A stretch of DNA of 64,000 nucleotides from Desulfamplus magnetovallimortis (GCF_900170035.1 NZ_LT828551.1:104163-168162), one strand, 5' to 3'. Positions 7,008-63,703 are shown, numbered from the stretch's first letter. Notes: generated by a model from the sequence alone, not told the origin. Program-made: numbers and translations.

Positions 7008-7045
7008 AATTGGGCACCCTTCATTTGTCGGTTTCTACTTTTTTG

Positions 7046-8622: not shown

Positions 8623-8843
8623 AACTGCCCGGGCTTGATTCTGCTTTTGACACCTTTAAAATTTAACTTAGGAATGAGCACAAAATAACTTTCCCATTTT
8701 GATTAAACGAAGTGGCCGTGAAGACCGCGCGCCCTGATTTAAATGGGCACGTTATTTAAAATTTATTCCTTATCTTGAAACTTTTATGGAGATAATGGCC
8801 GTTTGTCGGCTCTCTTCACAAAAAATGAGCTATATGGCGGCTG

Positions 8844-9413
8844 TTGCAGAGTCAATCCCGAAAATTAAAAAAAATTGAGGATGATATGATTGAAATGATG
8901 CTGATGGGATTTCTCATGGATGGTGAGAAGACCGGATATGAAATAAAAAAATATATGGAAAACAGCACCCACTATTTTTTCAACACCGGCTTCAGCAGCA
9001 TCTATCCAAAACTCAAAAAACTGGAAAAAGAAGAACGTGTGCGGGTAAGCCAGGTTATCAAAAACGGTAAGCTCAACAAACTTTATACACTTACGGATGA
9101 GGGCAAAAAGGCGTTTCTTGAGTGGCTGGAGATAAAGCCAGAAATAGGACGCATACGGGATGAAGCTCTGTTAAAAGTGTTTTTCTTTGATCATCTTGAA
9201 GATGACAAAATAGTTCCCCAGCTTAAAGGATATGTCGGAGATCTTAGTCAACATGTCCAAAACCTTCTATCCATAAAGGAGCGACTATCCACCCGCGAAG
9301 TCGAAGTAGAACCTTGGAAAATGATGACTCTGGAGTTCGGCATCCGGTATTATAATTTTCTGGAACAAATATTCAATGAAATGCTTTTAAAAAACAGTCC
9401 CGACCAAGATTAA
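8844..9413 (+). CDS. PadR family transcriptional regulator (start may be the internal ATG at 8886)
   Basis: MIEMMLMGFLMDGEKTGYEIKKYME...IYPKLKKLEKEERV...KLYTLTDEGKKAF is a PadR winged helix. Confidence 0.8.
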   Translation: MQSQSRKLKKIEDDMIEMMLMGFLMDGEKTGYEIKKYMENSTHYFFNTGFSSIYPKLKKLEKEERVRVSQVIKNGKLNKLYTLTDEGKKAFLEWLEIKPEIGRIRDEALLKVFFFDHLEDDKIVPQLKGYVGDLSQHVQNLLSIKERLSTREVEVEPWKMMTLEFGIRYYNFLEQIFNEMLLKNSPDQD

Positions 9414-9837
9414 TTTAGTTGTCCAATGCCCAAAAATTACCACTGGTAATATAAAAGAATTTATAAAAAAATAACCTATAATTATAGTATTTTATAATAA
9501 AATATCCCAGCCTTTACGGTAATTTAAACTACCATTTTTAAGCAGAAACATATTTAGTTCTTGCATAAACCAACCAAACAAATCCCTTATATATGCCCTT
9601 TATCTGTTCATTTTATGGGATTCTGGCATTTTTTCCATAGCTCCTACGTATGATGGCAGGTTTATTGCGTAATTTCCATGCCATTTCAATTGCGATGTAC
9701 TTGCCACGCATCATTGCGATACACTTGCTGCGCATCATTGCGATACGACAGTATTGACACAGCTCAAAAGTTCATAGGTGTCGGATTTGAGCATTTTTTT
9801 AGTACTAATTCCTTAACCTCTTTGCAAAGGAGCAAAA

Positions 9838-11211
9838 ATGACAGATTTTCTAAACGCTTTAGACAGTTTTATGTGGGGACCCGTCACCATCTGCCTATTG
9901 GTGGGTACCGGTATTTTGATTGCCTTTATGGTAAAGTTCATCCAGATTCGGCATTTCATCTATGCCTGGAAGCTTATTTCAGGTAAATTTGACAATCCTG
10001 ATGACAAAGGAGAAGTGACCCATTTTCAGGCACTTTCCACTGCCCTTTCTGCAACCATCGGCACCGGTAATATTGCAGGCGTTGGCACAGCCATTGCCAT
10101 TGGTGGGCCTGGAGCTGTATTTTGGATGTGGGTGACAGCATTTTTCGGCATGGGCCTTAAATATGCAGAGTGCCTGCTCTCACTGAATTTCAGAACAATA
10201 CATCCAGACGGTTCCGTAGGAGCAGGTCCCATGTACTATCTTGAAAAAGGGCTTGGAAAAAAATGGCTTGGCATTGCCTTTGCTCTCTTTGCCACTATTG
10301 CATCATTTGGTATTGGAAACATGGTACAGGCAAACTCTGTTGCCGAGCCATTTCAGACAGCATTTGGTGTACCCAAAATAGTGACAGGCGTTGTCATGGC
10401 TGTACTATGCTTTCTGGTTATTGTGGGTGGAATAAAAAGAATCGGAAATTTTGCCAGCAAAATCGTTCCTTTTATGTCAGTATGTTACATACTTAGTGTG
10501 CTGTGTATTATTCTTGCCAACTTTGGCGACGTGGGCTCAGCCTTTGGCACAATTTTCAGTGATGCATTTACCGGAAGTGCAGCAGCAGGCGGTTTTACAG
10601 GTTCAGTTGTTGCCCAGGCTATAAGGTTTGGCGTTGCAAGGGGTGTATTCTCCAATGAGGCAGGTCTGGGAAGTGCTCCCATTGCCCACGGAGCTGCACA
10701 GACAGAAGAGCCAGTCAGAGAAGGTCTTGTGGCCATGCTGGGGCCATTTATTGATACCATCATGATCTGCACCATGACAGCACTTGCCATTGTCATGACC
10801 GACGCTTACACAATGCTTGGAGAGACAGGAAAGGCCCTGTCAGGTTCTGATCTGACTGCCAAGGCATTTGAACTTGGTCTGCCCTTTGGCGGAGGTAATT
10901 ACATTGTCTCCATAAGCATCATATTTTTTGCTTTCTCAACAGTGGTTGGGTGGTCATACTACGGGGATCGATGTGTAGATTATCTGTTTGGTGAAAAATT
11001 TGTTAAACCATATAAAATTATTTACTGCTTTATTATTCCTGTTGGTGCAACCATAAAGCTCTCCACAGTCTGGACAATATCCGATATTTTCAATGCGTTA
11101 ATGGCGTGGCCAAACCTTGTGGGAATTATCTTTTTAAGCCCTTTTGTCGTGAAAAAAACAAAAGAATACTTTTCAGATCCTGAAAGGGTATATCCATCAT
11201 ATTCAAAATAA
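9838..11211 (+). CDS. Alanine/glycine:cation symporter (AGCS family)
   Basis: The N-terminus MTDFLNALDSFMWGP..FQALSTALSATIGTGNIAGV is typical of AGCS; multiple TM segments. Confidence 0.9.
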   Translation: MTDFLNALDSFMWGPVTICLLVGTGILIAFMVKFIQIRHFIYAWKLISGKFDNPDDKGEVTHFQALSTALSATIGTGNIAGVGTAIAIGGPGAVFWMWVTAFFGMGLKYAECLLSLNFRTIHPDGSVGAGPMYYLEKGLGKKWLGIAFALFATIASFGIGNMVQANSVAEPFQTAFGVPKIVTGVVMAVLCFLVIVGGIKRIGNFASKIVPFMSVCYILSVLCIILANFGDVGSAFGTIFSDAFTGSAAAGGFTGSVVAQAIRFGVARGVFSNEAGLGSAPIAHGAAQTEEPVREGLVAMLGPFIDTIMICTMTALAIVMTDAYTMLGETGKALSGSDLTAKAFELGLPFGGGNYIVSISIIFFAFSTVVGWSYYGDRCVDYLFGEKFVKPYKIIYCFIIPVGATIKLSTVWTISDIFNALMAWPNLVGIIFLSPFVVKKTKEYFSDPERVYPSYSK

Positions 11212-12875: not shown

Positions 12876-15412
12876 GGATTCATTTCCTGGATCATAGATT
12901 TGACCTCTTGTATTATCTTTTTAAATTCAGCTATTGCCAGTCTCATATTGAGTATATCAAAGTTATCCACATAATTGACAAGATTATCACCATATTGTGT
13001 CAATAACTCAATATCATTTTTCAAACCAAGCACTCTGATATTCTCACCAAAAAGTTTTACCTTGTCAATGGGTTGCCTTTTTTTAAATGATCGCCATTGC
13101 TCCATATAATCAGATTCAAGAGTGGCCAGAATTTGGGAAATCTTGATTCTGTCTCCTGAAAGGGAGTTGATTGCTTTTTTATGCTCTTCATTCAAACCCG
13201 AATCAGTTTCTGTCAACGGCAGATATTTTGACAACTCTGCAAGAAGTTTATCTATTTCAACAGGTTTTGCAAGAAAGCCATCAAAACCTCTTTTTATTAT
13301 GTCAGGCTTGTCCATAACAGATGAGGAAGCTGTGACTGCAATGACCGGAATTTTTTGAGTGACAGGATTGTTTTTAATTTTTTCCAATGCTTCAAATCCG
13401 TTCATTACCGGCATCCTTATATCCATCAAAATAACATCCGGATGATGTTCACCGGCAATCAACAACGCTTCATGGCCATTTTGAGCATGTAAAACATCAA
13501 GATTTACCTTGCATAGCACCTCGTTCAAAAGATGTCTGTTGGACTCAATATCGTCAACAACCAATATTTTTCCATTTTCAAACCTTATATCTTCGTGGTA
13601 AAAGCTCTTTTCCAAAAGCGGAACCTCATCAAAGAGCGCCTGCACATCAGGTATAATTACCTCAAAGCAACTGCCCTTTCCAGGGGAACTTTCCACAAGA
13701 ATCCGGCCGTTCATCATTTCTACAACTCTTTTGCAGATAGCAAGGCCTAAACCTGTGCCGCCGTACTGTGCATTCTCCTGTCCTGCCTGCTGTTTAAATG
13801 AATCAAAAATGGTCATGATCTCATCTTCAGGTATGCCGATACCGGAATCTTCAACAATTATATGAAGATCGCCAAGTTCCATAAAAGTAACAGTCATTTT
13901 TATGGTGCCGTTTTCAGTAAATTTAACAGCATTTCCAACAATATTTAGAAGTATCTGCCTTAAACGTATTTCATCAATCATAAGAGCCGGAGGAAAATCC
14001 GCATCAACTTCAACAATAAACCGGATATTTTTTCTTGAGGTCTGCAATGCAAATATCTGTTCTATTTCATAAATAACAGCTCTCAAATCGCTGCAAGTGT
14101 ATTTAAGCTCGGCTTTGCCAGCCTCCATTTTGGAAAGATCAAGAATATCGTTAATAAGCGTCAGAAGATTTTTTCCTGCATTTTTTATTGCAGATATGTA
14201 CTGTTTCTGTTTCTCATCTTTAACAAGGGAAGACAAAAGTTCGCTGAAGCCGGTAACGGCATTAAGAGGAGTTCTGATCTCATGACTCATGTTGGCCAAA
14301 AATGCGCTTTTTGCATTTGTTGCAGCTTCTGCCTCTTTTCTGGCATCTTCTAAAGCACTCTCACGGGCAGATATCGCTCTTGTCATAAGGACAAAGTTAT
14401 GTGAAAGATGGTTAAAATCCTCCAGTCCCCAGTTACCGGCCTGAAGATCGTAGTGACCTTGTGCAACACGGTCTGTAAAGCTTGAAAGTGCTGTCAGCGG
14501 AAGTTTGATACTGCGGTAGAGATAAATAAAGACAAGTGTTGTTCCAAGACAGCTCACAAAGAGAGAGATCATAAGAATCTTCCTGATAAAGACAACAGGT
14601 GCAAGTGCCTTTGAAGCATCCCTGAAAATAACAGTGACAAGATCTGCTGTAACGATCTCATCCACACTTACAATTGATTCTATCCCCTTCTCATCATATC
14701 TGCGTCCGGATGCAAACTCTCCTTTAAGAGCCTGCCTGATATATGGAATATTGAGAAGATTCAGGCGCTGCTCGGCCATGCCATGCTCTGAGCTTGCGAC
14801 CACTGTTCCCTTACGGTCAAGGACAGTAACACGAACTTCAGCTTCTGATGCAAGTATGCCCACATTTCGGGAAAGATCAGCCAAATCAAGATAGCCCAGA
14901 ACCACAAGGGAGTCAAACATGCGGCTGACTGCAATGCCCGGTGTGTTACCCTTGACGGGGATATGCGAAAGTGACCAGCAGAAGCCCTCCTTGTTCAATG
15001 CTCCAAGATAAGAGGAGTGCCTTGAAAAATCATAGCCTATCCATGAATCATGCTTACGGGAAGAGTGGCTGATAATACCCTGACTGTCAAGGATATTCAG
15101 ACGTGAAAAAGCTGGAAATGCCTTGGCAATACCAATCAGAAGAGCATCCAGGTCAGAGCCGGTTGCAACCTTGTTCAAGGCAGCTTCTCCTGTGACAGAA
15201 ACTATCTTTTCTGCCTGGGACAAAATTTCATCAATCTGGACAGAGAGAGACTTGGCCATGACAAGGTTTGAGACAAGAATCTCATTTTCCATATTGGATG
15301 CAATTTTATTAAGGGTCAAAAGCCCTGACATAATTCCCGGAAACACCACCAGAAAAATCAGAGAAGAGGTCAAAATGTTTTTCAGGCTTCGACCAGGCCA
15401 GCAAGATAACAT
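12872..15412 (-). CDS. Hybrid sensor histidine kinase with periplasmic Cache-like sensor, HisKA, HATPase_c, receiver and C-terminal helical (Hpt-like) region. The ORF is open to 15565, but the internal Met at 15412 avoids overlap with the upstream SBP gene.
   Basis: SHEIRTPLNAVTGFSELL; GGTGLGLAICKRVVEMMNGRI; ILVVDDIESNRHLL...ILMDIRMPVMNG. Confidence 0.8.
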   Translation of the reverse strand: MLSCWPGRSLKNILTSSLIFLVVFPGIMSGLLTLNKIASNMENEILVSNLVMAKSLSVQIDEILSQAEKIVSVTGEAALNKVATGSDLDALLIGIAKAFPAFSRLNILDSQGIISHSSRKHDSWIGYDFSRHSSYLGALNKEGFCWSLSHIPVKGNTPGIAVSRMFDSLVVLGYLDLADLSRNVGILASEAEVRVTVLDRKGTVVASSEHGMAEQRLNLLNIPYIRQALKGEFASGRRYDEKGIESIVSVDEIVTADLVTVIFRDASKALAPVVFIRKILMISLFVSCLGTTLVFIYLYRSIKLPLTALSSFTDRVAQGHYDLQAGNWGLEDFNHLSHNFVLMTRAISARESALEDARKEAEAATNAKSAFLANMSHEIRTPLNAVTGFSELLSSLVKDEKQKQYISAIKNAGKNLLTLINDILDLSKMEAGKAELKYTCSDLRAVIYEIEQIFALQTSRKNIRFIVEVDADFPPALMIDEIRLRQILLNIVGNAVKFTENGTIKMTVTFMELGDLHIIVEDSGIGIPEDEIMTIFDSFKQQAGQENAQYGGTGLGLAICKRVVEMMNGRILVESSPGKGSCFEVIIPDVQALFDEVPLLEKSFYHEDIRFENGKILVVDDIESNRHLLNEVLCKVNLDVLHAQNGHEALLIAGEHHPDVILMDIRMPVMNGFEALEKIKNNPVTQKIPVIAVTASSSVMDKPDIIKRGFDGFLAKPVEIDKLLAELSKYLPLTETDSGLNEEHKKAINSLSGDRIKISQILATLESDYMEQWRSFKKRQPIDKVKLFGENIRVLGLKNDIELLTQYGDNLVNYVDNFDILNMRLAIAEFKKIIQEVKSMIQEMNP

Positions 15413-40475: not shown

Positions 40476-40567
40476 TCGTAATTTCTAATTCCTAACTCGC
40501 AATTGAATAATATTATCACGTTTCATTCGTAATTTCTAATTCCTAACTCGCAATTGAATAAATTTCC
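40452..40567. repeat. 51-bp tandem duplication (2.3 copies) spanning the start codon and 5' leader of the four-helix-bundle gene
   Basis: ttgaataatattatcacgtttcattcgtaatttctaattcctaactcgcaa occurs twice in tandem, then a partial third copy. Confidence 0.9.
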
Positions 40568-42932
40568 GCTTCCAGTTCTGTGATTGCCTGCAAATACTTC
40601 TTTTTACCACCGAAAAGGCTGATAATCTCAAGGGGAGAGCCGAACTGATCCAGTGGGTTCACTTGCAGAATTTTCATATCTTCAATGTTTTCAATGCCTT
40701 CATCCGCGTATTTTTCCAGCAGAGCTTCCAGCACTTTGCGGGTTTGTTCTCCATATTTGGTAAAGTAATCCCGTTTTTTGACATTGTTCGCCCGTTCCGC
40801 TCTGGTCAGTGGTGGTTGGTCAAATGCTGTATGACAGATGAGGTCAAAAATATCCATTTCCTTGTTAATGGCTTCCTTAAGATTTTCAAAAATAATACCC
40901 TGTTCTGTCAGTTCTTCGATGATAGCCTGTTTTTTGTCGGTTTGATTCCATTTATTAAGGAAGTTAGACAGGGTGCGGTATTGCTCACGCACTTTTTCTC
41001 TGGTGTAATCCTTGAGGCTGCCGGTAATCAGTTTGCCGTTGTTATCCATATACTGGATACGCTCATTGAGTACAGTCACGTTGACACCGTTGACATAGTA
41101 TTTTTCTCTCGGCTCGGCAACAATGTCTCCACCTGTGGTGATATCAGGCTCATAAGGAGGTGGATCAAAGATTATTTCCTCGCCGTCTTCATCAATGATC
41201 GGATCAAGTGATTCTGCTTCTTCTTCCGGTGATTCGAATTCATCATCTTCATCAAGTACTTTTACCCTGACTGGATCACCGTCAAAGTCTGGGTCGGCAA
41301 AGAGATCTGTTACATTGCGGAAGTCCATGATGGTGAAGAATGTTTTACCAAATTCTTCATTGATGCGTGTTCCACGGCCAATGATCTGTTTGAACTCCGT
41401 CATGGAGCCTATGTTGCTGTCCAGCACAATAAGTTTACAGGTTTGAGCATCCACGCCTGTGGTCATAAGTTTTGAAGTGGTGGCAACAACCGGGTACCTC
41501 TCCTCTGGGTTGATGAAGTTGTCCAGTTCCATTTTTCCTTCATCATTGTCGCCGGTAATCTGCATGACAAATTTGGGATTTTGTGCCATGAGATCGCTGT
41601 TTTCGTTGGCTATGGCAGCCCTCATTCTCTGGGCGTGATCAATGTCAACGCAGAAGATAATGGTTTTATCAAATCTGTTGGTCTTTTTCAGGAATTCGGT
41701 GACTTTTCTGGCAACTGTTTCGGTTCGTTCATCAATGACCAAATTCTTGTCAAAGTCTTTACGGTTGTATATGCGGTCATCGACAAGCAAACCTTGCTTG
41801 TCGGTCTTGCCCTGTTCTGGTCGCCAGCCTTCCAAATCAACATTCAAGCCTACTCGTACAACTTTATAGGGGGCAAGGAAACCATCTTCTATGCCCTGTT
41901 TTAGTGAGTATGTATAGATTGGGTCGCCAAAATATTCGGTACTGGAAACGGTTTTTGTTTCTTTTGGAGTTGCGGTTAAGCCGATATGGGTTGCCCCCGC
42001 AAAATAATTGAGAATCTCACGCCATGCACTGTCGCTGGCGGCACTGCCACGGTGGCACTCATCAATGACGATGAGGTCGAAGAATTCGGGACTAAATTCA
42101 CGGTAGGCGTCTTTGTCTTCATCGTAGTTGGTTAAACCCTGATACAGGGCCAGATAGATTTCATAGGATTTGTCTATTTTCTTCTTTTTGATAACCGTCA
42201 TTTTATCTTTAAAATGACGAAAATCTCCCCGTTTAGTTTGATCAATCAGGGCGTTTCTATCAGCCAGAAACAATATGCGTTTTTTGTTTTTCCTTTCCAA
42301 AGGCGGTGGATAATTTGGAATGCGGTGTAAGTCTTGCCCGTGCCTGTTGCCATGGTTAGCAATATACGATTTTGTCCCTTGGCAATAGCCTCAACCGTTC
42401 GGTTGATGGCTATTTGCTGGTAGTAGCGTGGGGTTCTGTCTGAACCATCAAAGAAATAATCCTGTGCTGTAATACGTTCCTGTTCTTCTGTTTCAATGCC
42501 TTTATATTTTTTGTAGCGTTGCCAGAGTATTTCCGGCGAAGGGAATTGATCAAGGGTAAGGTCTGTTTCTATATTGCCATCTGTGCAGGTTCGGTCATGT
42601 TCATAAAAGCCGTCACCGTTGCTGCTGTAAACAGAGGGGATATCTAAAATCTCGGCGTAATTGAGCCCCTGCTGGATACCTGCTTTGACTGAGTGTTTAT
42701 TGTCTTTTGCCTCAATTATGGCAATGGGGATATTTGGCTTATAATAAAGGATGTAATCCGCTCTTTTCCTTTTTCCTCTGCTTGTCAGGTTGCCTTTAAC
42801 ATAGATACGACCATCAGTGAAAGTGACTTCTTCTCGAATTTGGGTAAGCGGGTTCCAACCAGCTTTTTCAAGTGCTGGCTGGATATATTTTGTGCAGATG
42901 TCTCTTTCTGATAGGTCTTTTTTAGATGTCAT
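40543..42932 (-). pseudogene. hsdR: Type I restriction enzyme R subunit HsdR, interrupted by a single-base frameshift in a T/A homopolymer run near 42281-42291 (N-terminal part 42246-42932, C-terminal part 40543-42300)
   Basis: N-terminal ORF ends ...TGTGKTYTAFQIIHRLWKGKTKNAYCFWLIETP*, while the next frame reads ...KNKKRILFLADRNALIDQT (Walker A then the conserved helicase continuation); the two frames overlap at ggaaaaacaaaaaacgc. Confidence 0.8.
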
Positions 42933-53172: not shown

Positions 53173-53757
53173 TCATGCCCGTTTACTGTACAAACCATCG
53201 GTAGCTATATGGTTCACACCATGGGAGATTAAGTATTCTTTGTTCTTTTTGATTTGTTGAAGATAGAAGTCGATGCGGTTTTCTTCTTCTTCACCAATTT
53301 CATAGCTGGAAGGGGTTTGCTCAACAGAGAGATTGTATGCGGTATTGTAGTCCAAATCGATAATTGCGAGGGATGAAATCTCTTGACCTTTTTGGGACTT
53401 ACCCGCAACGCCACTCCAGAATTTGTCTATCCCATAGCTATGCTTACCTATTTTGGGAACATAAGAAGCATCTATAGCAGCTATTCGTTTATTGGTATTT
53501 GGGATAGTGTCCATAATCAGCAGGTGATTGAAAAGTGTAAAATCGAATGATTTTCTAAAATTTCTCGAATAACTTTTCTCATTCAAATTGCTATAGCGCC
53601 CCATGTTGCGAAAGTTCATTCGACCTTGTAGTAGCATTATAGTTGAAAAAAGTGTCAGTAAAAATTTATGCTGATGTTTGGTTATTTTGGACAAAATACA
53701 GTTTATTGTTCTCATAGAGATCTCCTTTGTTGGACTGTAATGTTGTGTGTAAAACAT
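53173..53757 (-). mobile_element. IS701-like (IS4 superfamily) DDE transposase, C-terminally truncated remnant
   Basis: AAIDASYVPKIGKHSYGIDKFWSGVAGKSQKGQEISSLAI resembles the IS701 DDT...K.GK.S.GV..QY.G..GK..NCQ block; the second Asp region ATDGLYS is present; the catalytic Glu region is absent. Confidence 0.55.
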
Positions 53758-53840: not shown

Positions 53841-56800
53841 TTATAAATTTAGTTGCTGGTGATTCAAATAGTAATAAAGACCTTTTTTGCCCATAAGCTC
53901 TTCATGGTTTCCCTGCTCAACCACCTCACCCTTATCAAGGACAATAATGGTATCTGCACTGCGAACAGTACTCAGACGATGGGCAATGATTATGGCGGTT
54001 CTGTTTTTTAATATTGTATCCATGTTTTTTTGTATAGCCTGTTCAGACTCAATGTCCAGAGAACTTGTGGCTTCATCAAAGATAATTATTCCAGGATTTT
54101 TATATAGAACACGGGCAATGGCAATCCTTTGCATCTGTCCACCTGATAACTGCAATCCAGATTCTCCAACCTTTGTTTCATAACCATTGGGGAAATTAGA
54201 GATAAAATCATGTGCATTGGCAAGCTTTGCTGCGGATATAATTTTTTCCATTGTGGCAGAAGGATCATCCGAAGAGATGTTGTCCCCAATTGTTCCACTG
54301 AATACAAAGCTGTTCTGGAGTACATAACCCACATTGGATCTTAAAAAGGAAAGATTTAAATTTTTGATATCAAAACCACCAACTGATATTGAACCTTCAT
54401 TGGCATGAAAAAACCTTGCTATGAGGTTTACAAGGGTTGTTTTACCTGATCCGCTGCGTCCCACAATGGCACATCTTGTTCCAGCAGGAATCTCGATATT
54501 GATATTGGATAGAATCCAGGGGTCATCAACACCGCCATATCTAAAAAATACCTGTTCAAATCTTATATTGCCGGAAAGCTTCTCCATGACTATGCCCGGG
54601 GATTTACCATCCCTTTCACCATATTCGGTTTTAGCTGCAAAAACATCATTGAGGCGGTCAACCGAGACCAGGGTCTCCTGTAGTTGATCCCATACAGTTA
54701 TAATTCGATTAATGGGGGTGACAACGCTTCCCATGAGGGCCATGAAAGCCATGAGTTCACCAACTGAAATATTATGTTTTATAACTTCATGGGCACCATA
54801 CCAAAGGATAATAGTGGAACCAAGTGTTCCCATGAAATCGCCAAGGGAGTGGAAATATATTTTTAGATGGCTGAGGGAAAACTCTATATTGATACTTTTT
54901 ATAAATTTGTTTTCCCATTTCCATCTTATCTGATTTTCAAGGTGCATCGCTTTTACTGTATCTATGGCCTTAATGGATTCAATCATATGGGATTTTGCTT
55001 CAGCTCCGGCAGCAAAGGCATCAATATTGAGCTTTTTTAAAAACGGAGTAAATCCAAGGGTGATGGCAATGAAAAAAGGGATAAACAAGATCACAAGAAG
55101 AGTCATATTGGCGTTATAATAAAGCATAAGCCCTAAATAGATTATGATGAGAAAGGTATCCAGAACAACGGTCAAAGCTGTCTGAGTCATAAAAGTTCTT
55201 ATTTTTTCATTTTCACCAAACCTTGATACAAAATCGCCAATTTTTCTGGCCTTAAAGTAACCAAGGGGCAATGCCAATAGATGTTTGTAAAATGAAACCA
55301 GCATACTTATATCAATTTTCATGCTTGTATGTACAATTAGGTACTGCCTGACAATGGTTATCAATATTCTGAATATAAGAACAATAAGCATTCCTATTAA
55401 CATAATGTTAAGAAAGGATATGTTTTCGTGGTACAATACCTTATCAACTATATTCTGGGTAAAAACAGGGGTGGCAAGGCCAAGTAAATTCAGGAGCATG
55501 GACGCAAGGAAAATCTCTGCAAGGATCATTTTATGGGGAGTAACAAAACCAATAAATTTTTTCAGGGAAGATTGTTTATCCACCTCCTGGTTACCCAAAA
55601 GTGGTGTGGGTTCAATAATAAGGGTGATTCCATTCCAGTTATCTGAAAAATATTCCCTGTGGTATTTTCTGAGACCCATGGCCGGGTCTGCAACCCATAC
55701 ATATTTTTTTGAAACTTTGTAAACAACACAATAGTGGTAACCCTGCCAGTGAATAACACAGGGCAACTTTATATCAAGGAGCCCATCAAATTTGATTTTT
55801 ATCCCCCTGGTCAAAAAGCCCAGGTGTTCAGCTGCCGAGGCAAGGTTGGAAAGGGTTACACCTGAGTTATCTGCGTGGGAAAGCTCGGAAATTCTGGCCA
55901 GGGAAAATTTTTTCCCATAAAAACGGGAAATCATCACAAGACAGGCAGGGCCGCAGCCCATCTCGTCATGCTGTCTTACAAAGGGAAAACGCAATCCGTG
56001 GTATTTTTTTTTCGCTGTGGATGGGGATGATGTATCTATGGTGTTCTGCTCTACCTCCGGTGGCTTTTCCCTGTAATCCCGGGTTTGATTCAATTCCCCT
56101 TTGTTGTGTTCAGGTTGTGTGTCTGTATATATATTTGGGGTGATATTGGGGGGAGATATGGAGCGATACTGGTGCAGTCTGTCGGAGAATAGCGATTTAA
56201 GATCCGGGGATTTCTGGATCAGTTCTTTAAATGTGTCTCTGCTCAATGCAAAAAGATGACAATTTGTCAGACAGACAACATCTGCATATCGTGGGCTATC
56301 CTCAATTAGTGCCTTTTCCCCGAAAAATTCCCCCTGGTGAAGAAAATTAATTATACTTTGATCTCCATCTTCCCATTTTATAACCTTTAATTTCCCCGAT
56401 TCAATTAGATAAAATTTATCAGGCTCATCCCCCTGCCTGAAAATCCCTTCCCCTGCCATAAAGGATTCTGGGTTGAAATTTTTCACAATCTGCTGTACAT
56501 CCTTGGGCTTTAGAGGAGATAAAAGGGAGCAACCCTTTAAGAAAAGCTGAATTGATGTGGAATGGATAAACTTATCAAAATAACCACGGATTTCAGGTTT
56601 GCTGAAAACAAATTTTTCAAAGATTTCATTATCTATGGCTATCAAAAGAGATTGTTCAACAGCCCTTGCTGCTGCATTTCTGGGTCTATGGGAAATCAGG
56701 GCAGTTTCCCCAAAGTGATCTCCACGGGTTCTCACCCCCATGTTGATCTCTTTACCGCTGTTGTCCTTGAAAATAATTCTGATTCTGCCGCTGTATATGA

Positions 56801-56960
56801 TATAAAAGCAGTCACCTGCATCACCCTGGTCAAAAATCAAATCCCCGGCTTGTGATGATACAAACCTTGAGTTTTTGGCGATATACTGCAATGACTCATC
56901 TGATAAAATTGAAAATAGCCACAATTTTCTTAAAAATAATTCAGTATCGTGCATCTGCAT
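53841..56960 (-). CDS. Peptidase-containing ABC transporter (PCAT): two N-terminal cyclic-nucleotide-binding domains, C39 Cys-peptidase, 6-TM ABC permease, ABC ATPase
   Basis: cNMP-binding-like ..FDQGDAGDCFYIIYSGRIRI.. and ..FRQGDEPDKFYLIESGKLKV..; C39 HDEMGCGPACLVMISRFYGKKFS; Walker A GRSGSGKTT; signature LSGGQMQRIAIAR. Confidence 0.85.
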   Translation of the reverse strand: MQMHDTELFLRKLWLFSILSDESLQYIAKNSRFVSSQAGDLIFDQGDAGDCFYIIYSGRIRIIFKDNSGKEINMGVRTRGDHFGETALISHRPRNAAARAVEQSLLIAIDNEIFEKFVFSKPEIRGYFDKFIHSTSIQLFLKGCSLLSPLKPKDVQQIVKNFNPESFMAGEGIFRQGDEPDKFYLIESGKLKVIKWEDGDQSIINFLHQGEFFGEKALIEDSPRYADVVCLTNCHLFALSRDTFKELIQKSPDLKSLFSDRLHQYRSISPPNITPNIYTDTQPEHNKGELNQTRDYREKPPEVEQNTIDTSSPSTAKKKYHGLRFPFVRQHDEMGCGPACLVMISRFYGKKFSLARISELSHADNSGVTLSNLASAAEHLGFLTRGIKIKFDGLLDIKLPCVIHWQGYHYCVVYKVSKKYVWVADPAMGLRKYHREYFSDNWNGITLIIEPTPLLGNQEVDKQSSLKKFIGFVTPHKMILAEIFLASMLLNLLGLATPVFTQNIVDKVLYHENISFLNIMLIGMLIVLIFRILITIVRQYLIVHTSMKIDISMLVSFYKHLLALPLGYFKARKIGDFVSRFGENEKIRTFMTQTALTVVLDTFLIIIYLGLMLYYNANMTLLVILFIPFFIAITLGFTPFLKKLNIDAFAAGAEAKSHMIESIKAIDTVKAMHLENQIRWKWENKFIKSINIEFSLSHLKIYFHSLGDFMGTLGSTIILWYGAHEVIKHNISVGELMAFMALMGSVVTPINRIITVWDQLQETLVSVDRLNDVFAAKTEYGERDGKSPGIVMEKLSGNIRFEQVFFRYGGVDDPWILSNINIEIPAGTRCAIVGRSGSGKTTLVNLIARFFHANEGSISVGGFDIKNLNLSFLRSNVGYVLQNSFVFSGTIGDNISSDDPSATMEKIISAAKLANAHDFISNFPNGYETKVGESGLQLSGGQMQRIAIARVLYKNPGIIIFDEATSSLDIESEQAIQKNMDTILKNRTAIIIAHRLSTVRSADTIIVLDKGEVVEQGNHEELMGKKGLYYYLNHQQLNL

Positions 56961-56987: not shown

Positions 56988-58568
56988 TTAATCACAGCAG
57001 ATAATTTCTGTTTGATTAATAAACCAGGATAGCTCCATTCTGATATGATAATATTTTCCCACAAGCATAAGATACTCCTGTTTAAGTGCTAAAAGTTCAT
57101 ATTCTGATGCTATAAGTTCTTGCTGGTAATCAAGGAGATTAATTACTGTTGTTCTTTCCTGAACAAGCCTTTCAACTTCATTTTCAAGATTCTGCTTTGA
57201 AAGGGCGACAATCTCACGGGAATATGCAATTTGCCTGTCAAGGTCAGTGAGGTCATCATATATTCCAATTATCTCTTTTTTAAGTTCCGCAGTTCTTTTT
57301 TTAATGCTGTTATCAATATTTGTTATCTGTTTTTTTACAATTGAAATCCGTGCATGGTTTCCATCCTGTTTCAGGGGAATTTCAAAGGATGTTTTAAAAG
57401 CCATGAAATGGTTGGCAGTATCAATATCTTTAAAAGCTCCATCCAATCCATTTGGGTCATATCCATTGATACCGGCCTGGAAAACAACGTCAAGTTTTGG
57501 TTTTGCCCTGTCCAAGGCAATAAGAAGATCCTGCTCAAGTTCCTTTTTACTATATTCAAGGGAGATTAAAAAAGAATCCATTGCCAACACATGTTCAATT
57601 GTCTGTTCCTTTGAAGCAGGTTTAAACAAGTTAATTAATGATTTTGAACATGTCACAAGTTGCAGGGTTCCATCCAATCGGTATTGGGAACTGTTATTGT
57701 AAATTAAAAGGAAAAGATTTTGTAGATAGCCATCCCTTTGATTTTCCAGCTCTAAAATCTTTCGCTCCTGGAATATATGGGCGGCTTTCATTCTGTTAAG
57801 ATCTGTGATGGTCATATATCTAAGGGCTACTTTTTGCTTTATGATTTTATAAAGCTTAAAGGTTCTATCACGAATTTTTTTTTGTAAACTTAATCTTTTG
57901 TTAATAAAATAGAGATAGTAGTATTGATTGAACATCTTAAATATTGTGTTGCTTAAGATAATCTTATTTTCCTCTTCTGATCTTTTTAAATTTATTTTTG
58001 CTTTTTTAATGGGGGCATTTGTTATTTCTTTTCCCCTTCCCTGCATAACAGGCTGGTCATATTCCATGAAAAATGAGCTTTGATATTCTTTTGGGCTTTC
58101 AATGGAATAGATATATTCTATCTCTTCCATTGAAGCTGTTACATGGATAGATTCCTTGCCGCCAAAAATATTTTTTCGGCTTATCCCTGTAGTATATAAT
58201 TGAATATCCCATGCAAGATAGTTATCCACATTTAGGCTGTTATATCGCCTCCTTTCAAAGGTGCTGTCTGCCTGAAATCGGGGAATGAAGATCTCTTCCT
58301 GGATTGATAGGTTTTTTTCTGCAATATCCCTTGAGACAGTGCTGCTCTGGATATCCATGCTATTTTTAAGGAGATCATTTTGGGCTGAGTAGAGAGAAAG
58401 GGAAGATAAGGTCTTTGCATTATCATTATCCAAGGCATAATTATCCCGTGCATAATATGGACTATCCTTTTCCATGGCAAAAGTAATATTAAAGGAAAAA
58501 GAAATGGTAGAAAGAAACAGAGTTAGTAATGTTAAACTGAATAATATTAAAATAGATTTTCCTGTCAT
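56988..58568 (-). CDS. TolC-like outer-membrane efflux protein (putative), co-oriented with and upstream of the PCAT gene
   Basis: Signal peptide; two long heptad-rich helical halves; context. Family assignment is tentative. Confidence 0.5.
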   Translation of the reverse strand: MTGKSILILFSLTLLTLFLSTISFSFNITFAMEKDSPYYARDNYALDNDNAKTLSSLSLYSAQNDLLKNSMDIQSSTVSRDIAEKNLSIQEEIFIPRFQADSTFERRRYNSLNVDNYLAWDIQLYTTGISRKNIFGGKESIHVTASMEEIEYIYSIESPKEYQSSFFMEYDQPVMQGRGKEITNAPIKKAKINLKRSEEENKIILSNTIFKMFNQYYYLYFINKRLSLQKKIRDRTFKLYKIIKQKVALRYMTITDLNRMKAAHIFQERKILELENQRDGYLQNLFLLIYNNSSQYRLDGTLQLVTCSKSLINLFKPASKEQTIEHVLAMDSFLISLEYSKKELEQDLLIALDRAKPKLDVVFQAGINGYDPNGLDGAFKDIDTANHFMAFKTSFEIPLKQDGNHARISIVKKQITNIDNSIKKRTAELKKEIIGIYDDLTDLDRQIAYSREIVALSKQNLENEVERLVQERTTVINLLDYQQELIASEYELLALKQEYLMLVGKYYHIRMELSWFINQTEIICCD

Positions 58569-59028: not shown

Positions 59029-59253
59029 ATGGCACGTATTCAAATTAAAGATCTGGCAGAGAATCAGACAATTTCAAAAGAAGACCTCAAAAGAGTAAAG
59101 GGCGGTTTTGTTATGATGGATAATGTGTTCAGTGGGATTACACCTGAATATAAATTCTCACCTGAATATAAATTCTTTAACACTGCCCAGTTTATCACTT
59201 CAGGTCAACTGGTGGAAAATATGGAAAGTATTTTATATGAAAAATGGTTCTAA
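59029..59253 (+). CDS. Double-glycine (GG) leader peptide precursor: 26-aa leader plus 48-aa Cys-free aromatic-rich core with PEYKF(S/F) repeat
   Basis: Leader MARIQIKDLAENQTISKEDLKRVKGG fits the GG-leader consensus (hydrophobic at -4, -7, -12; acidic at -8/-9; GG at -2/-1). Strong SD aaggag 8 nt upstream. A cognate C39 transporter sits 460 bp away. Confidence 0.7.
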   Translation: MARIQIKDLAENQTISKEDLKRVKGGFVMMDNVFSGITPEYKFSPEYKFFNTAQFITSGQLVENMESILYEKWF

Positions 59254-59307
59254 ACACCCATTTACCAGTTCATATGAAAAATGGATCTAAACACCCATTT
59301 ACCAGTT
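59234..59307. repeat. 37-bp tandem direct repeat (2 copies) spanning the precursor stop codon (tatatgaaaaatggttctaaacacccatttaccagtt / catatgaaaaatggatctaaacacccatttaccagtt)
   Basis: Read directly. Confidence 0.9.
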
Positions 59308-59370
59308 GCTGCCATCCCCGATGGTGAAAACACGATCTATTTTGACATCCTTCATATCAACTCAAAATTA

Positions 59371-59398
59371 GTTTACATTTTTCGAAAAAAGTGTAAAC
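59371..59398. promoter_or_regulatory. Near-perfect 28-nt palindrome gtttacatttttcgaaaaaagtgtaaac between the precursor and the downstream gene (intercistronic hairpin)
   Basis: Read directly; no U-tract follows. Confidence 0.4.
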
Positions 59399-59464
59399 CG
59401 ACAAATGAAAGATCCCTGTATTTTAATGATAAATTATTAGATTATGGGTTTAGAATGCCAATAA

Positions 59465-60568
59465 ATGGAATGGACAGACCAAATGACAACTGCACGAATA
59501 ATTGATTATCTTCCTGATATTTATAATGGAATCCTACCCGATTTTTTTGAAAAAACAATTCCAAGGGAAACGGCTGCCACATGTGAAAGTTGTGCCATGT
59601 GGCAGCCTGCAACAACATCGGGCAAGGAAAACAAGACTTTGAGATCCTTTTCCAGGGAAAGCAAATGCTGCACCCATTATCCCAATATCCCCAACTATCT
59701 CCTTGGGGGATTTCTCTCCCATAAAAAAAGTGACGATGCCAAAAAAATCCTGGATATTATTTCAAATAGCCCAGGTCACACCCCAAGGGGTATAGTTCGC
59801 CCCAAAAAAATTCAATTCCTTATGGAGAATTCCCAACGCAGCTTTTTTGGAAGATCAAAAACCCTTATATGTCCATTTTTTGACAAGGAAAAAGGATATT
59901 GCACCATAAGACCCTTTTGGGATGCTGTGTGCAACACCTGGTTTTGTAAGTATGTCAAAGGTTATGATGGATTTCAGTTCTGGGTGGCGATTCGGAAATA
60001 TTTAAGCTATGTGGAACAGAGTTTAATACAATTTGCCATGTACAACTTGAATTGTAATCCCGAAAATATAGAAAACCTGGTTTCCAATGAACAGCCAGGG
60101 CCTTTATCACTGGGAGATCTTGACGATTTGCCTCTGGATAGAAATAGGTATCTTTCGCAATGGGGAAAATGGGCTGGACGTGAAATAGAATTTTATAAAA
60201 AATGTTATGAACTGGTCTTAAAAATGACAAGGCCGCAGTTTGAAGAGATTACAGGTATTACCCAGAAAATAAACCTTGCCGTTGTAAAATCAAAATACAG
60301 TGATCTTTTCTCCACAGATCTGCCCAGGGTATTAAAGAAAAATTCGTCCATGGTTGAAGAAAAGATAGAAGGGGATCAATATCTGATCATGGGTTATTCC
60401 ATGATCGACCCATTTCTAGTACCCAAAAAACTCTATGAAATACTAAGTTTTTTTGATGGTAACCAGGATGTTGAAGCTACCTGCAAAATGATAAAAGAGC
60501 ATACCGGTTTTGTCCCTGACCATGACCTGCTTGTGGAACTTTACCGCTTCAGGATTCTTACTACTTGA
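59465..60568 (+). CDS. Cysteine-rich protein of unrecognised family (C-x2-C...CC and C-x9-C-x9-C-x4-C clusters), co-transcribed with the GG-leader precursor; candidate peptide-modifying or accessory enzyme
   Basis: CESCAMW...KCCTHYP and CPFFDKEKGYCTIRPFWDAVCNTWFC; weak resemblance to YkgJ/FliB-type CxxCxxCC metal-binding proteins, not confident. Confidence 0.5.
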   Translation: MEWTDQMTTARIIDYLPDIYNGILPDFFEKTIPRETAATCESCAMWQPATTSGKENKTLRSFSRESKCCTHYPNIPNYLLGGFLSHKKSDDAKKILDIISNSPGHTPRGIVRPKKIQFLMENSQRSFFGRSKTLICPFFDKEKGYCTIRPFWDAVCNTWFCKYVKGYDGFQFWVAIRKYLSYVEQSLIQFAMYNLNCNPENIENLVSNEQPGPLSLGDLDDLPLDRNRYLSQWGKWAGREIEFYKKCYELVLKMTRPQFEEITGITQKINLAVVKSKYSDLFSTDLPRVLKKNSSMVEEKIEGDQYLIMGYSMIDPFLVPKKLYEILSFFDGNQDVEATCKMIKEHTGFVPDHDLLVELYRFRILTT

Positions 60569-60713: not shown

Positions 60714-61121
60714 TTACATATTTCCATTGAGCCATATTTGAAAAGCCATCTCTCGAACCATATTTTTTGTATCGTCATGGGATAGAAGAGCATCCATGGT
60801 GATCTCTTTTTCAAGCTTGTCCTTTAGGTGTTCAATAATGATACTTGTCTCAATATGATTTTCCAGTGCTTCAAGGGTAACTCCTTTGGATTTTATCCAT
60901 GCTTCTGTGTCCTCAGCCTTATTAAGTCCATGGGCAGCCCTGAAGCTGTCAAAGGCCCCTTGCAGTTCCTGGTCAGTTACTTCCATCCCCATTTTTTTTG
61001 CATTGTCAGCAGCAACCTTTCTTTGGAAAAGATTTGCCAGAGCAGGCTTTAATTTGTCTGTAATTTTAAGATAGTCAAATATTTCATTCTGGGTAAACTC
61101 CAAATCTTTTATTTTAATCAT
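60714..61121 (-). CDS. SurA/PrsA N-terminal chaperone-domain-like protein (no isomerase domain)
   Basis: VTDQELQGAFDSFRAAHGLN parallels ISVSDEELTQFSDHYRLITGLN of the adjacent parvulin protein's N-domain. Confidence 0.45.
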   Translation of the reverse strand: MIKIKDLEFTQNEIFDYLKITDKLKPALANLFQRKVAADNAKKMGMEVTDQELQGAFDSFRAAHGLNKAEDTEAWIKSKGVTLEALENHIETSIIIEHLKDKLEKEITMDALLSHDDTKNMVREMAFQIWLNGNM

Positions 61122-61140: not shown

Positions 61141-61770
61141 TTACGATGTTTTTTTGCTATCCGTAACAGTAAATGGTTGATTTATTATTCCACTGCACCA
61201 TTCATTCCAAATAACCTCTTCAACAACCCTTTGTACCTCCTCACTTTCAGGCGATGGTTTTATAAGTTCTTCAAGTTTTACAATATAATGGAAACCATCA
61301 ACCTCAAGGGGATCTATTATCGTGCCAGGCTCGGATGTGAAAATTTTGGATGCTAAATCAGAAGGAAGCATATTTCTGTATATAATTCCAACATAACCGG
61401 ATTTCCACTTGAGATCATCATCTGTGTTGTATTGCCTTGCAAGGGTATGAAAATCCTCTCCATCCTCTTCAATTCGCATCATAAGTTCATTTGCAAGGTT
61501 CTTTGAATCAACTATGATTTGGGATATCCTTGCCTTTTCAAACTCTGCTCTGTGTGCCATATAATAATCAAGAACACTCTTTTGCGTGGCCATCTCTTTT
61601 TTTATCTTTGAAATTAATATTTTTGCTTCACATAAATCTTCATATATATCCTGGTTAATGGCAATGCGATGGAAAAAGGCAAGGGTTTCATCTGCTGAAT
61701 TTAAACCTGTTATTAACCTGTAATGATCTGAAAATTGTGTCAGCTCTTCATCTGAAACAGATATACCCAT
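61141..61770 (-). CDS. Parvulin-type peptidyl-prolyl isomerase with N-terminal chaperone-like domain
   Basis: ARISQIIV...EDGEDFHTLARQYNTDDDLKWKSGYVGIIYRNMLPSDLASKIFTSEPGTIIDPLEVDGFHYIVKLEE matches the parvulin/rotamase fold pattern. Confidence 0.7.
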   Translation of the reverse strand: MGISVSDEELTQFSDHYRLITGLNSADETLAFFHRIAINQDIYEDLCEAKILISKIKKEMATQKSVLDYYMAHRAEFEKARISQIIVDSKNLANELMMRIEEDGEDFHTLARQYNTDDDLKWKSGYVGIIYRNMLPSDLASKIFTSEPGTIIDPLEVDGFHYIVKLEELIKPSPESEEVQRVVEEVIWNEWCSGIINQPFTVTDSKKTS

Positions 61771-62045
61771 CTCCTCTGCCTTTTGGAAAATCTCCTTGAT
61801 ATGTACAATTTCAGATAAAATCTTGTCAGCCCTGCCTGAAAAAAAGAGATAGGTTATTATTTCTTCTGGTTGAATTGCATTATATTGAACAGAATCAGAC
61901 TGAGTAGAACCGGATTTTGCAGAACCGGATTGAATGGAGAGATGTTTTTTTTATGAAAATTCCATGTTTTTACAATTTGGAGGTTTTCATTATTGTTTTG
62001 GGGAAGTGATTCGTCATGGCAGTTATACAAAATTTCCATATATTT

Positions 62046-62255
62046 ACTCCTTTGATATATCATCATCAAGGTCAGGGTACAATTCCTTTGTACAATCAGG
62101 GCAGATTCCATGGCTAAAATGGGCATTGGAATGTTCCATGATAAAAGTTTCCAGTTGATTCCAATATCCACTGTCATCCCTGATTTTTTTGCAGGATGCA
62201 CATATTGGGATTAAACCGCTCAAAGTCTTGACCTGATTTAAGGCAGTCTGGAGTT
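62046..62255 (-). pseudogene. Start-less 70-codon remnant encoding the Cys-rich module ...PICASCKKIRDDSGYWNQLETFIMEHSNAHFSHGICPDCTKELYPDLDDDISKE*, the same domain as the C-terminus of the response regulator at 12168-12875
   Basis: Manual translation of the minus-strand frame; the frame opens right after a TAG with no usable start codon; the overlapping track ORF (61857-62201) is in a different frame. Confidence 0.45.
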
Positions 62256-62389
62256 GCTAAAAAATGATTTTGCTGTTTCAAGGGCAATCAATTTCGTTTT
62301 TTGCTTTTCATATTTAACATTTAAACATAGCAAGATTGAAACTATGACAATCCATATTGAAACTGTAATGTATGTAATTAATTTGATTT

Positions 62390-63703
62390 TCATGGGGTTT
62401 TAAAAGCAGATACCTTATTATAAAAAATGGAAAGCAGGCTTTTCTTTTCGGTAATCATTTCAGCAACTGCAGTCATTCCGGGTTTTAAGGGACAAGATCG
62501 TCCATGTACATTAAATGATCTATTATTTAATGCCCCTTTTACCTTATATACAAACACTCCATGTTTTTCCTCAATGGCTGAGGGAGATATGGCAATTACA
62601 TATCCGTTAATTGTTCCATAATCCCTATGGGGAAATGCATCAAATTTATATTTTACAGGCATATCAACTTCAATGAAACCAATATCTTTGTTTGCAACTG
62701 TGATATCCATATAATATGGTTCATCTGCTGGAATAACAGTACATAAAACAGTTGATGGGTTTACATATTCTCCTTTGTTTAAAAAAAATAGCCTGGAAAC
62801 AATGCCGGATTTTGGTGTAAAAATGTTATACTCCCCTGTTTTTTCATTGGAAAGTGCATTAACTTTACTGGAACCATTAAATTGCAATTCATTTTGGAGC
62901 TTTCTAAGCTTTGCCTGTAAGGAGTTCATGGTATTTTTCTGTTCAAGCAATATGTTTTCTATTTTTTTATCAATAATATTTTCTTGATTTTTCTTTTCAG
63001 CCTCTGTTTTTTTAATATTTTGGGCAATAATATCCTTCTCTTTTAGAAAAATACGTTTTTGTGAATCAAGTTTTTTAACTTCGGTTTTTGCCAATTCAAG
63101 GCGTCCTTTTACGCTATTATATTCAGCAATGGATGTTAATTGCTTTTTGAAAAGTATCTGGGTATTTAAAAACTCCTGCTTTCGATTTTCGATCTCTTTT
63201 TTCCAGTAAGTAAAGTCACTTTGAACCTGTTCAAGGGATATGGATATTTTTTCCATGGAAAGAGCAAAGGAGTGTTTCATATTTTCCAGCTCATCTTTTA
63301 AGTACTCTATCTCTGTTTCCATGGCATCAATAAGGCTTTTATAGTATCCTTTTTTAAATTCAATCTCTTCCTGAACAGATTTCAGTTCTGAATATTGGGA
63401 CATATTGATTCTGGTTTTTATGGTAAAAAGTAGATCTCCTTCATCCACAAAAGCACCATTTTCTATGGATATCTTATCTATAAAACCATGAAATTCAGAT
63501 ACCACCTGCATTTCATGGGACAAGGGGCGGACAATAGCACTGCCTTCACGGATGATATCCACTTTACAAAGGGCGGAATAGAACAAAATAGATATAATTG
63601 CCAAAAAAATAATGTAAAGTATCCCCCTGGCATAGATGGAGGGCATACGCTTTAATTGCTCAACAACAAAAAAATTATCATAATTTTCATTGGTTGATAA
63701 CAA
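62390..63703 (-). CDS. HlyD-family membrane-fusion (type I secretion / bacteriocin export) protein
   Basis: N-terminal TM, long coiled-coil, C-terminal beta-barrel ...GMTAVAEMIT.KKSLL..F..; family-typical. Confidence 0.85.
   Translation of the reverse strand: MLSTNENYDNFFVVEQLKRMPSIYARGILYIIFLAIISILFYSALCKVDIIREGSAIVRPLSHEMQVVSEFHGFIDKISIENGAFVDEGDLLFTIKTRINMSQYSELKSVQEEIEFKKGYYKSLIDAMETEIEYLKDELENMKHSFALSMEKISISLEQVQSDFTYWKKEIENRKQEFLNTQILFKKQLTSIAEYNSVKGRLELAKTEVKKLDSQKRIFLKEKDIIAQNIKKTEAEKKNQENIIDKKIENILLEQKNTMNSLQAKLRKLQNELQFNGSSKVNALSNEKTGEYNIFTPKSGIVSRLFFLNKGEYVNPSTVLCTVIPADEPYYMDITVANKDIGFIEVDMPVKYKFDAFPHRDYGTINGYVIAISPSAIEEKHGVFVYKVKGALNNRSFNVHGRSCPLKPGMTAVAEMITEKKSLLSIFYNKVSAFKTP

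Follow-up and report, generated by a model that had tools for sequence, protein, structure and literature searches.

Tailoring guided by a RiPP recognition element (RRE) is a known principle among peptides that are ribosomally synthesized and then modified post-translationally (RiPPs). The export cassettes of NHLP/Nif11-type RiPP systems, in which a transporter with cyclic-nucleotide (cNMP)-binding, C39 peptidase and ATP-binding cassette (ABC) parts is combined with HlyD (TIGR03796/TIGR03794 type), were reportedly described by Haft and co-workers in 2010. To our knowledge, FliB is the only biochemically studied enzyme of the PF03692 superfamily. This flagellin lysine-N-methylase of Salmonella has eight conserved cysteines, and its C17-x4-C22-x3-C26C27 motif, which the authors compare to PF03692, ligates an O2-sensitive [4Fe-4S] cluster required for the S-adenosylmethionine (SAM)-dependent lysine methylation of flagellin (PMC8598068). 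In rosaritide biosynthesis MirC, a TIGR04500 protein, was shown to be an indispensable partner of the class-defining enzyme, with which it co-purifies, and the pathway also uses a peptidase-containing ABC transporter (PCAT) (PMC13097080). Here we consider a gene from a 64,000-nucleotide stretch of the Desulfamplus magnetovallimortis genome (GCF_900170035.1 NZ_LT828551.1:104163-168162), the whole of which is referred to as the window. It encodes a cysteine-rich protein that ends in a domain of predicted RRE fold, and it follows a gene for a precursor peptide of the double-glycine (GG) type. What appears to be new is a probable RRE-guided maturation protein with a type of putative catalytic domain not yet linked to RiPPs.

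A cysteine-rich protein with a predicted RRE fold

The first-ATG open reading frame (ORF) spans 59465-60568 on the + strand and encodes 367 residues, in agreement with an earlier, sequence-only reading of the window, and the likely gene is six residues shorter. All homologues align from Met7 (MTTARI...) and, since they and the NCBI annotation begin there, the true start is probably Met7 at 59483, which gives a gene at 59483-60568 (+) and a three-part protein of 361 residues. The product is identical to the D. magnetovallimortis 'conserved hypothetical protein' SLM29141.1 / WP_080805854.1 / A0A1W1H9J3, annotated at 361 residues. Residues are numbered below as in the 367-residue ORF. The AlphaFold model has a predicted local distance difference test score (pLDDT) of 82 and a predicted template-modelling score of 0.83.

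Strong new evidence for a maturation role comes from the C-terminal part (60323-60565, +; residues 287-367). The sequence-only reading had proposed a small alpha/beta domain of approximately 90 residues here, and such a domain is indeed present in the model: strands and helices occupy residues 289-361 at block-mean pLDDT values of 81-97, and the final ~80-90 residues form a winged helix, with a three-stranded sheet and three helices, that superposes on solved RREs by two structure-comparison methods. In the predicted structure, then, residues 287-367 have the PqqD-like RRE fold.

A winged helix might equally be placed on DNA, and we considered whether the protein is an Fe-S redox-sensing transcription regulator that controls the peptide locus through its C-terminal domain. 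Fe-S clusters are common redox sensors, the domain is of the appropriate class and the gene stands alone in some members of the family. It is nevertheless RREs, and not DNA-binding winged helices, that give the best structural matches, and members of the family tend to have a domain of net negative charge (median -2, with only 25% of members positive; the helix 2-3 region also has a median of -2). We regard a regulator as very unlikely.

The N-terminal domain (59483-59959, +; residues ~7-165), a putative binder of Fe-S and/or Zn, carries eight cysteines in two clusters, C40-x2-C43-x24-C68C69 and C136-x9-C146-x9-C156-x4-C161, spaced exactly as had been claimed from the sequence. Three more cysteines, at 196, 247 and 341, are not conserved. 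Conservation was assessed in 119 diverse family members, and all eight cysteines are present in 117 of them; the family pattern is C-x2-C-x(14-30)-CC-x(65-77)-C-x(7-11)-C-x9-C-x4-C, in which the final x9 and x4 spacings of the second cluster are invariant. This conservation is far beyond chance. Between the two terminal parts lies an all-helical domain (59960-60322, +; residues 166-286) in which W233 is invariant and W173, L187 and E240 are conserved, and for which no known fold neighbour was found.

The family is large. A word-indexed search with the window protein gave 38 relatives, whereas an exhaustive profile search gave 1,880 representatives clustered at 50% identity (E <= 1e-3), 1,104 of them at E <= 1e-30; among the 150 profile matches listed, all are near full-length and almost all have ~350-400 residues. 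A scan of species-representative genomes confirmed 338 loci, with many Myxococcota among the best 80. In an annotated collection, a profile search recovered members from Acidobacteriota, Chloroflexota, Nitrospirota, Latescibacterota and Proteobacteria, named only 'hypothetical protein' or, by the generic JGI label, 'Fe-S-cluster containing protein', and without a Pfam domain.

That the family is unrecognised, as first proposed, is borne out. The window protein has no Pfam and no NCBIfam match, and against PDB sequences only a chance-level one (E 1.3); the family profile matched no PDB sequence. Radical-SAM, YcaO and LanB/C/M domains (PF04055, PF02624, PF04738, PF05147 and others) were found neither in the window protein nor in the 119 members, and the PqqD/RRE model TIGR03859 matched one of the 119, at E 0.099 only. 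The suggested resemblance to CxxCxxCC proteins of the YkgJ/FliB type stands as the sole recurrent Pfam signal: PF03692 (YkgJ type) matches 37 of the 119 at E <= 0.1, the best at 5.5e-6. In the matches examined, the invariant CC through the C146 region fall in a consistent register on profile positions 7-68, with scores of 13.5-18.5 bits against a Pfam gathering threshold of 23 bits. With hhalign, C136, C146 and C156 are paired with C58, C71 and C81 of YkgJ, though at low probability (see below).

Precursor peptides beside the gene and its relatives

The precursor gene (59029-59253, +) encodes 74 residues. A double-glycine leader of 26 residues (MARIQIKDLAENQTISKEDLKRVKGG; 59029-59106) is followed by a 48-residue core, FVMMDNVFSG...EKWF (residues 27-74; 59107-59250), and the ORF is the only leader-like one in the 64-kb window. 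It ends 211 nt upstream of the cysteine-rich ORF. Because the two genes share a strand and the terminator scan found no terminator-like site in the gap, their co-transcription is plausible. The GG-leader models TIGR04149 and NF047798 give weak, sub-threshold matches to this precursor. More generally, no curated leader model (TIGR04149, NF047798, TIGR01847 and others) gives the precursors a match better than E 6.6e-4, and the sole match above cutoff is that of the generic double-glycine model TIGR01847 to the precursor of the Ktedonobacterales locus L011 (17.7 bits; cutoff 15.7).

The intergenic region contains a hairpin (59371-59398, +) whose perfect 12-bp stem, GTTTACATTTTT/AAAAAGTGTAAAC, includes one G-U pair and closes on a loop of 4 nt; it lacks a U-tract and is not among the sites called in the terminator scan. 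The surrounding segment, 59240-59490, folds with a minimum free energy of -49.3 kcal/mol (z = -2.47). The hairpin is possibly an element for RNA processing, stability or attenuation, and it could set the ratio of precursor to enzyme transcript or serve as a protein-binding palindrome. Two tandem duplications were also observed. In one, at 59235-59307, a 37-nt unit that contains the last precursor codons and the stop codon occurs twice (YEKWF-stop and YEKWI-stop; TRF score 139); in the other, at 59141-59176 within the core, two copies of an 18-nt unit encode PEYKFS and PEYKFF (TRF score 72).

Leader-like ORFs within 2.5 kb were counted with a regular expression, with filtering on GC content at third codon positions (GC3) against spurious high-GC ORFs. 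The closest relatives, at 37-49% identity, belong to Desulfobacterota, Nitrospirota, Propionivibrio and Latescibacterota. Twelve of the 14 non-redundant closest loci (>=37% identity) have one to five GG-leader ORFs within 2.5 kb, and many also carry the PCAT, HlyD, PpiC and SurA_N set together with B12-radical-SAM enzymes. Among loci that are not of high GC content, 17 of 29 have a leader-like ORF within this distance, at a density of 0.30 per kb; in flanks beyond 5 kb the density is 0.054 per kb. GG peptides accompany members of the family in six or more phyla-level lineages.

The settings of more distant relatives (~30% identity) vary. In a gammaproteobacterial locus three small ORFs, two with GG-type leaders, accompany genes for MauE-like and CPBP proteins, the family member, HlyD and a C39-ABC transporter. 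One family member lies in a class I lanthipeptide cluster (LanB-N, LanB-C, LanC), and another is found with a radical-SAM enzyme, a GT9 enzyme and a GG peptide. Minimal cassettes, consisting of precursor(s) and the family gene with no other enzyme nearby, occur in Propionivibrio (L018 and L067) and Ktedonobacterales (L011). The Blastocatellales locus L010 has two tandem paralogues (8001-9119 and 9777-10862), each bracketed by a pair of GG-leader ORFs, with a cNMP-PCAT gene before them, a gene for an S9 prolyl-oligopeptidase after them and a TIGR04500-like gene nearby. This locus would be a convenient system for pairing enzyme with substrate.

The leaders beside the homologues are conserved, MARIKIKDLPKD.KISKEELKKI.GG, and the cores are hypervariable and mutually unrelated. 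This bears on the idea that the protein confers immunity by sequestering the mature peptide. Bacteriocin loci usually have an immunity gene beside the precursor, and the window shows no other evident candidate for one. An immunity protein would be expected to track its cognate core, whereas this family is conserved across loci with unrelated cores; moreover, the protein is large, rich in cysteine, equipped with a leader-recognition fold and apparently cytoplasmic, no membrane or signal segments being present in the model. We consider immunity extremely unlikely.

A leader-guided maturation enzyme as the favoured explanation

On balance we favour, with a little more belief than doubt, the view that the protein is a leader-guided maturation enzyme for the peptide encoded upstream. 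Such an enzyme would probably depend on Fe-S and would be new in kind among RiPPs. The sequence-only reading had judged a tailoring or maturation role plausible from the position of the gene; that role is now backed by the GG-leader neighbours of relatives in several phyla and gains strong support from the C-terminal domain, which two structure-comparison methods identify as an RRE.

We envisage the following sequence of events. The RRE would bind the conserved leader, MARIQIKDL...KRVKGG. The Cys-rich domain would carry either one or two Fe-S clusters or a combination of Fe-S and Zn, and would act jointly with the helical domain to modify one or more residues of the core. The pair of TIGR04500-like proteins encoded in the locus may assist as partner or chaperone, as MirC does for MirB. 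Judged from its domains, the PCAT would then cleave after GG, removing the leader, and export the product via HlyD and the outer-membrane efflux protein (OEP).

The reaction itself can be proposed only tentatively. Since FliB is the only biochemical precedent for such a Cys-rich domain, our leading specific guess, by analogy, is the transfer of an alkyl or methyl group that depends on SAM and is mediated by Fe-S, with lysine as a possible acceptor, while we consider this particular chemistry unlikely. Of all residues, lysine is the most constant in the 48 cores beside these genes: it is absent from two where 10.1 would be expected, it is enriched 1.5-fold, and it lies within the last five residues in 25 of the 48; its near-universal presence is suggestive only as regards lysine methylation. 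A bolder proposal, which we likewise think doubtful, is that a RiPP class so far undescribed has this family as its class-defining maturase, with FliB-like, non-canonical Fe-S/SAM chemistry delivered through the RRE, and that in the larger clusters the RRE also docks the leader-like tails of B12-radical-SAM enzymes and glycosyltransferases (see below), the protein thereby acting as the hub of a multi-enzyme assembly.

Several results weigh against an enzymatic, leader-guided role. In the protein, neither a cofactor site nor any catalytic residue can be pointed to, and no structural neighbour of its catalytic part was found in the PDB. The window protein does not match PF03692 even at E <= 10; the hhalign probability is 16% against the single E. 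coli YkgJ sequence and 4% against a 23-sequence enterobacterial profile, which is narrow (>=63% identity). The FliB model NF038110 matches none of the 119 members at E <= 0.1, nor the window protein at E <= 1. The isolated C-terminal domain has no match in Pfam, PqqD (PF05402) included, even at E <= 10, and the net charge of the RRE does not co-vary with that of the leader (rho 0.09), a comparison that is uninformative as a proxy for binding. RRE folds also occur in non-catalytic partners, for instance PqqD, TglI and the B1 proteins of lasso peptides. Where the related clusters are larger, radical-SAM, GT2 and other enzymes could supply all of the chemistry. The lysine signal is drawn from peptides that are non-independent and generally cationic, as secreted peptides often are. 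Finally, only 11 of the 59 high-GC, largely myxobacterial, loci have a leader-like ORF nearby and 48 have none.

Because the PF03692 scores are sub-threshold and the profile-profile probability is low, the Cys-rich domain is probably a distant relative of PF03692 and not a member.

The protein could be a non-catalytic adaptor or scaffold, the RRE of which holds the precursor, and perhaps the leader-like tails of partner enzymes (see below), and passes the precursor on to other enzymes or to the C39-ABC transporter, with the cysteines as structural Zn or Fe-S ligands. For an adaptor, ~280 residues with many invariant non-Cys positions (including E35, K67, T70, N77, W173, W233 and E240) is a great deal of protein. 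There is also no other tailoring enzyme nearby to receive the peptide in the window or in L011, L018 and L067, and the L010 paralogues, each with its own precursors, look like enzyme-substrate pairs. We therefore consider an adaptor to be a minority possibility, to which the non-catalytic RRE partners and the enzyme-rich larger clusters lend some weight.

The high-GC loci raise a different alternative, namely that the protein is FliB-like, an enzyme of protein modification or housekeeping, and that its real substrate, a protein or peptide, is encoded elsewhere, the adjacency to the GG peptide in the window being secondary. In the myxobacterial loci the gene stands beside MAPEG, DUF2378 and RdgC-like genes, and PCAT, HlyD and PpiC are absent; most high-GC members are found in such surroundings without a detectable precursor, and FliB itself acts on a folded protein (PMC8598068). 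Against a distant substrate, almost all loci of the window's clade have the gene embedded between those for precursor and export, the RRE is a fold adapted to leader peptides in extended form, and the GG-peptide association spans several lineages, as counted above. We find this alternative improbable. The RiPP link is strong in the window's clade and in several others, and it is not a property of the whole family since most myxobacterial loci have no detectable precursor. By the measure that the sequence-only reading set for refuting its claim, the result is thus partly adverse: the tie to GG-peptide loci is found in the window's clade and does not extend strictly to the family.

If the protein is a maturation enzyme, as we favour, it could reveal new post-translational chemistry and provide a new handle for genome mining. 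With a defined peptide substrate encoded alongside it, a putative Fe-S domain that would otherwise be opaque becomes open to direct test, and the family, with its 1,880 clusters, at least 338 species-representative genomes and no Pfam or NCBIfam model, includes some culturable myxobacteria among its carriers. Should the protein prove non-catalytic, it would still represent a widespread new class of RRE adaptor.

The locus and its counterparts in known systems

The peptide locus extends from a DDE-transposase fragment (53173-53757) to the end of the window. The fragment is a truncated DDE_5 ORF of 194 residues on the - strand, covering profile positions 12-120 of 272, that lies directly against the exporter gene, at one edge of the locus; past it lie housekeeping genes (asd-like, secA, clpA/B-like and aat). 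The exporter (53841-56960, -) is a 1039-residue ABC transporter with, by Pfam, two cNMP-binding domains, a C39 peptidase domain and ABC membrane and ATPase domains. The same cNMP-cNMP-C39-ABC architecture adjoins the homologues in L001, L002 and L010. Next to it is a TolC-like OEP of 526 residues (56988-58568, -; Pfam OEP 2.4e-17). Beyond the cysteine-rich gene there follow, all on the - strand, genes for a SurA_N-like protein of 135 residues (60714-61121; Pfam SurA_N_3 1.3e-5), a PpiC/parvulin-type protein of 209 residues (61141-61770; Pfam Rotamase_3 2e-10) and an HlyD-family membrane-fusion protein of 437 residues (62390-63703; Pfam HlyD_3 2e-15), the last of which is also kept beside homologues. 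In the window locus we see no further candidate for a tailoring enzyme.

The SurA_N-like and PpiC-like ORFs match TIGR04500, 'putative peptide maturation system protein', at E values of 9e-14 and 7e-16 and at 51 and 58 bits, respectively, below the cutoff of 180. A SurA_N-like gene of 135-137 residues is kept beside homologues and the SurA_N/PpiC pair is kept in L001-L004, while L010 carries a single TIGR04500-like gene of 319 residues. By analogy with rosaritide, the pair is a probable partner or chaperone of the maturation enzyme.

Two small ORFs lie between the PpiC-like and HlyD genes. That at 62044-62223 (-) encodes 59 residues with a four-cysteine motif, ICASCKKIRDD...HGICPDC, and has no Pfam match at E <= 0.001; the motif resembles the C-terminal tail of some deltaproteobacterial signalling proteins. 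The other, at 62238-62393 (-), encodes 51 residues and resembles a membrane anchor. Elsewhere in the window, the R subunit of a type I restriction system (40543-42932, -) is divided into two overlapping ORFs, 42246-42932 (HSDR_N and the start of ResIII) and 40543-42300 (ResIII, helicase C and EcoEI_R_C), and is probably a frameshifted hsdR.

The loci of relatives provided further observations. All seven distinct B12-radical-SAM enzymes of ~680-810 residues in related clusters, and one GT2-TPR protein, end in a leader-like tail without GG, with the consensus MA[RK]I.I.[ED]LP...[VI]..EE[IM].. and, for example, a terminal ...LMAKINIRELPKGLTVGKVEMKKSIGH directly before the stop codon. These tails are located at L001:13110-13190, L001:7400-7480, L002:12910-12998, L004:4132-4215 (-) and L014:12320-12403, and in L007 at 6760-6843, 9630-9710 and 14970-15048; two shorter radical-SAM homologues in L014 have none. 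In support, when a hidden Markov model (HMM) of the leader was compared with 2,829 long ORFs, the only matches at E < 0.01 besides read-through precursors were to four of these enzymes (9e-5 to 6e-3), each match stopping 4-8 residues short of the C-terminus; in the GT2-TPR protein a weaker internal stretch is matched as well. The tails may dock on an RRE in cis or in trans, possibly on that of the present family. No tail-bearing enzyme is present in the window.

A protein of ~377 residues without a Pfam or NCBIfam match, ending ...AGLHCLI(T/A)E.P.P, co-occurs with the family in six loci (L001:13397-14530, L004:8743-9870, L005:65-1192 and L014:12616-13749, all on the - strand; L016:806-1948; L019:742-1881). 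One weak DDAH-like match (E 0.14) hints at a guanidino-modifying enzyme of the amidinotransferase fold. The neighbour of ~375-377 residues in L001 and L004 was considered as a paralogue of the window protein and was ruled out on comparison. Small PhdYeFM-antitoxin-like genes recur within or at the edge of peptide clusters (L001:14794-15003, -; L002:13436-13702, -; L003:9777-10007, -; L004:8402-8605; L007:7118-7324; L021:9544-9747).

Among the precursors, the cores at L002:8701-8880, L001:7710-7877, L010:11020-11196, L015 (end 504), L019 (end 3135) and L022 (end 739) start alike, for example with ALGVFFKMETVDGESTDDKHKNEIDILS directly after GG, and resemble the N-terminus of the type VI secretion system tube protein Hcp. 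A second core motif, [NDSG]PQP[ED]PP plus an aromatic residue, is shared by precursors with different leader types from Desulfarculaceae, another deltaproteobacterial metagenome contig and Propionivibrio (L003:5285-5449, 5610-5777 and 6943-7146; L015, end 720; L007:15183-15377; L067, end 9642), and is a candidate modification site.

Comparison with described systems places the window locus near several of them. The rosaritide module MirB-MirC-MirD brings together a precursor, a class-defining enzyme, a TIGR04500 PpiC/SurA-like partner and a PCAT exporter (PMC13097080), an organization that the window locus appears to follow. The class-defining enzyme of rosaritide is an ATP-grasp ligase (PMC13097080), in whose place the window has the Cys-rich RRE protein. 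The TIGR04500-like function is moreover split in the window over two genes (135 and 209 residues) that score far below the cutoff. The NHLP/Nif11-type systems are likewise marked by an exporter with two cNMP-binding domains, C39 and ABC parts, together with HlyD, and by several precursors with one leader; the leader in the window is of the short, 26-residue GG type and not an NHLP or Nif11 domain.

FliB is similar in size (~400 residues compared with 361), also has eight conserved cysteines and an N-terminal C...C...CC motif and, like the window protein, contains no canonical methyltransferase or radical-SAM domain. Its motif is C-x4-C-x3-CC, whereas the present family has C-x2-C-x(14-30)-CC, and it has no reported RRE and acts on folded flagellin; this comparison was made by description and with the NF038110 model. 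In the YkgJ-type PF03692 proteins, on the cysteines of which the invariant CC and the C136/C146 region fall in the sub-threshold matches, the eight conserved cysteines form a first motif C-x2-C-x2-CC and a later CP...C...C block; the present family also has eight, but with C-x2-C-x(14-30)-CC as its first motif. YkgJ is a single-domain protein of ~110-135 residues, to which the present family adds a 24-residue insert, the helical domain and the RRE.

The literature searched, which included a 2025 paper on RRE mining, contains no mention of the fusion, the family or its accessions. The established RRE proteins (PqqD, TbiB1/TfuB1, LynD/TruD, MccB, TigE and NisB/MibB/TbtB) differ from the window protein in that the latter lacks a sequence match to PF05402 or other RRE models. 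They resemble it in that its C-terminal 80 residues superpose on their leader-binding winged helix and in that its gene adjoins a precursor with a conserved leader and a variable core. The RRE of the window protein sits at the C-terminus, joined to a Cys-rich domain of a type for which the literature searched gives no link to RiPP biosynthesis.

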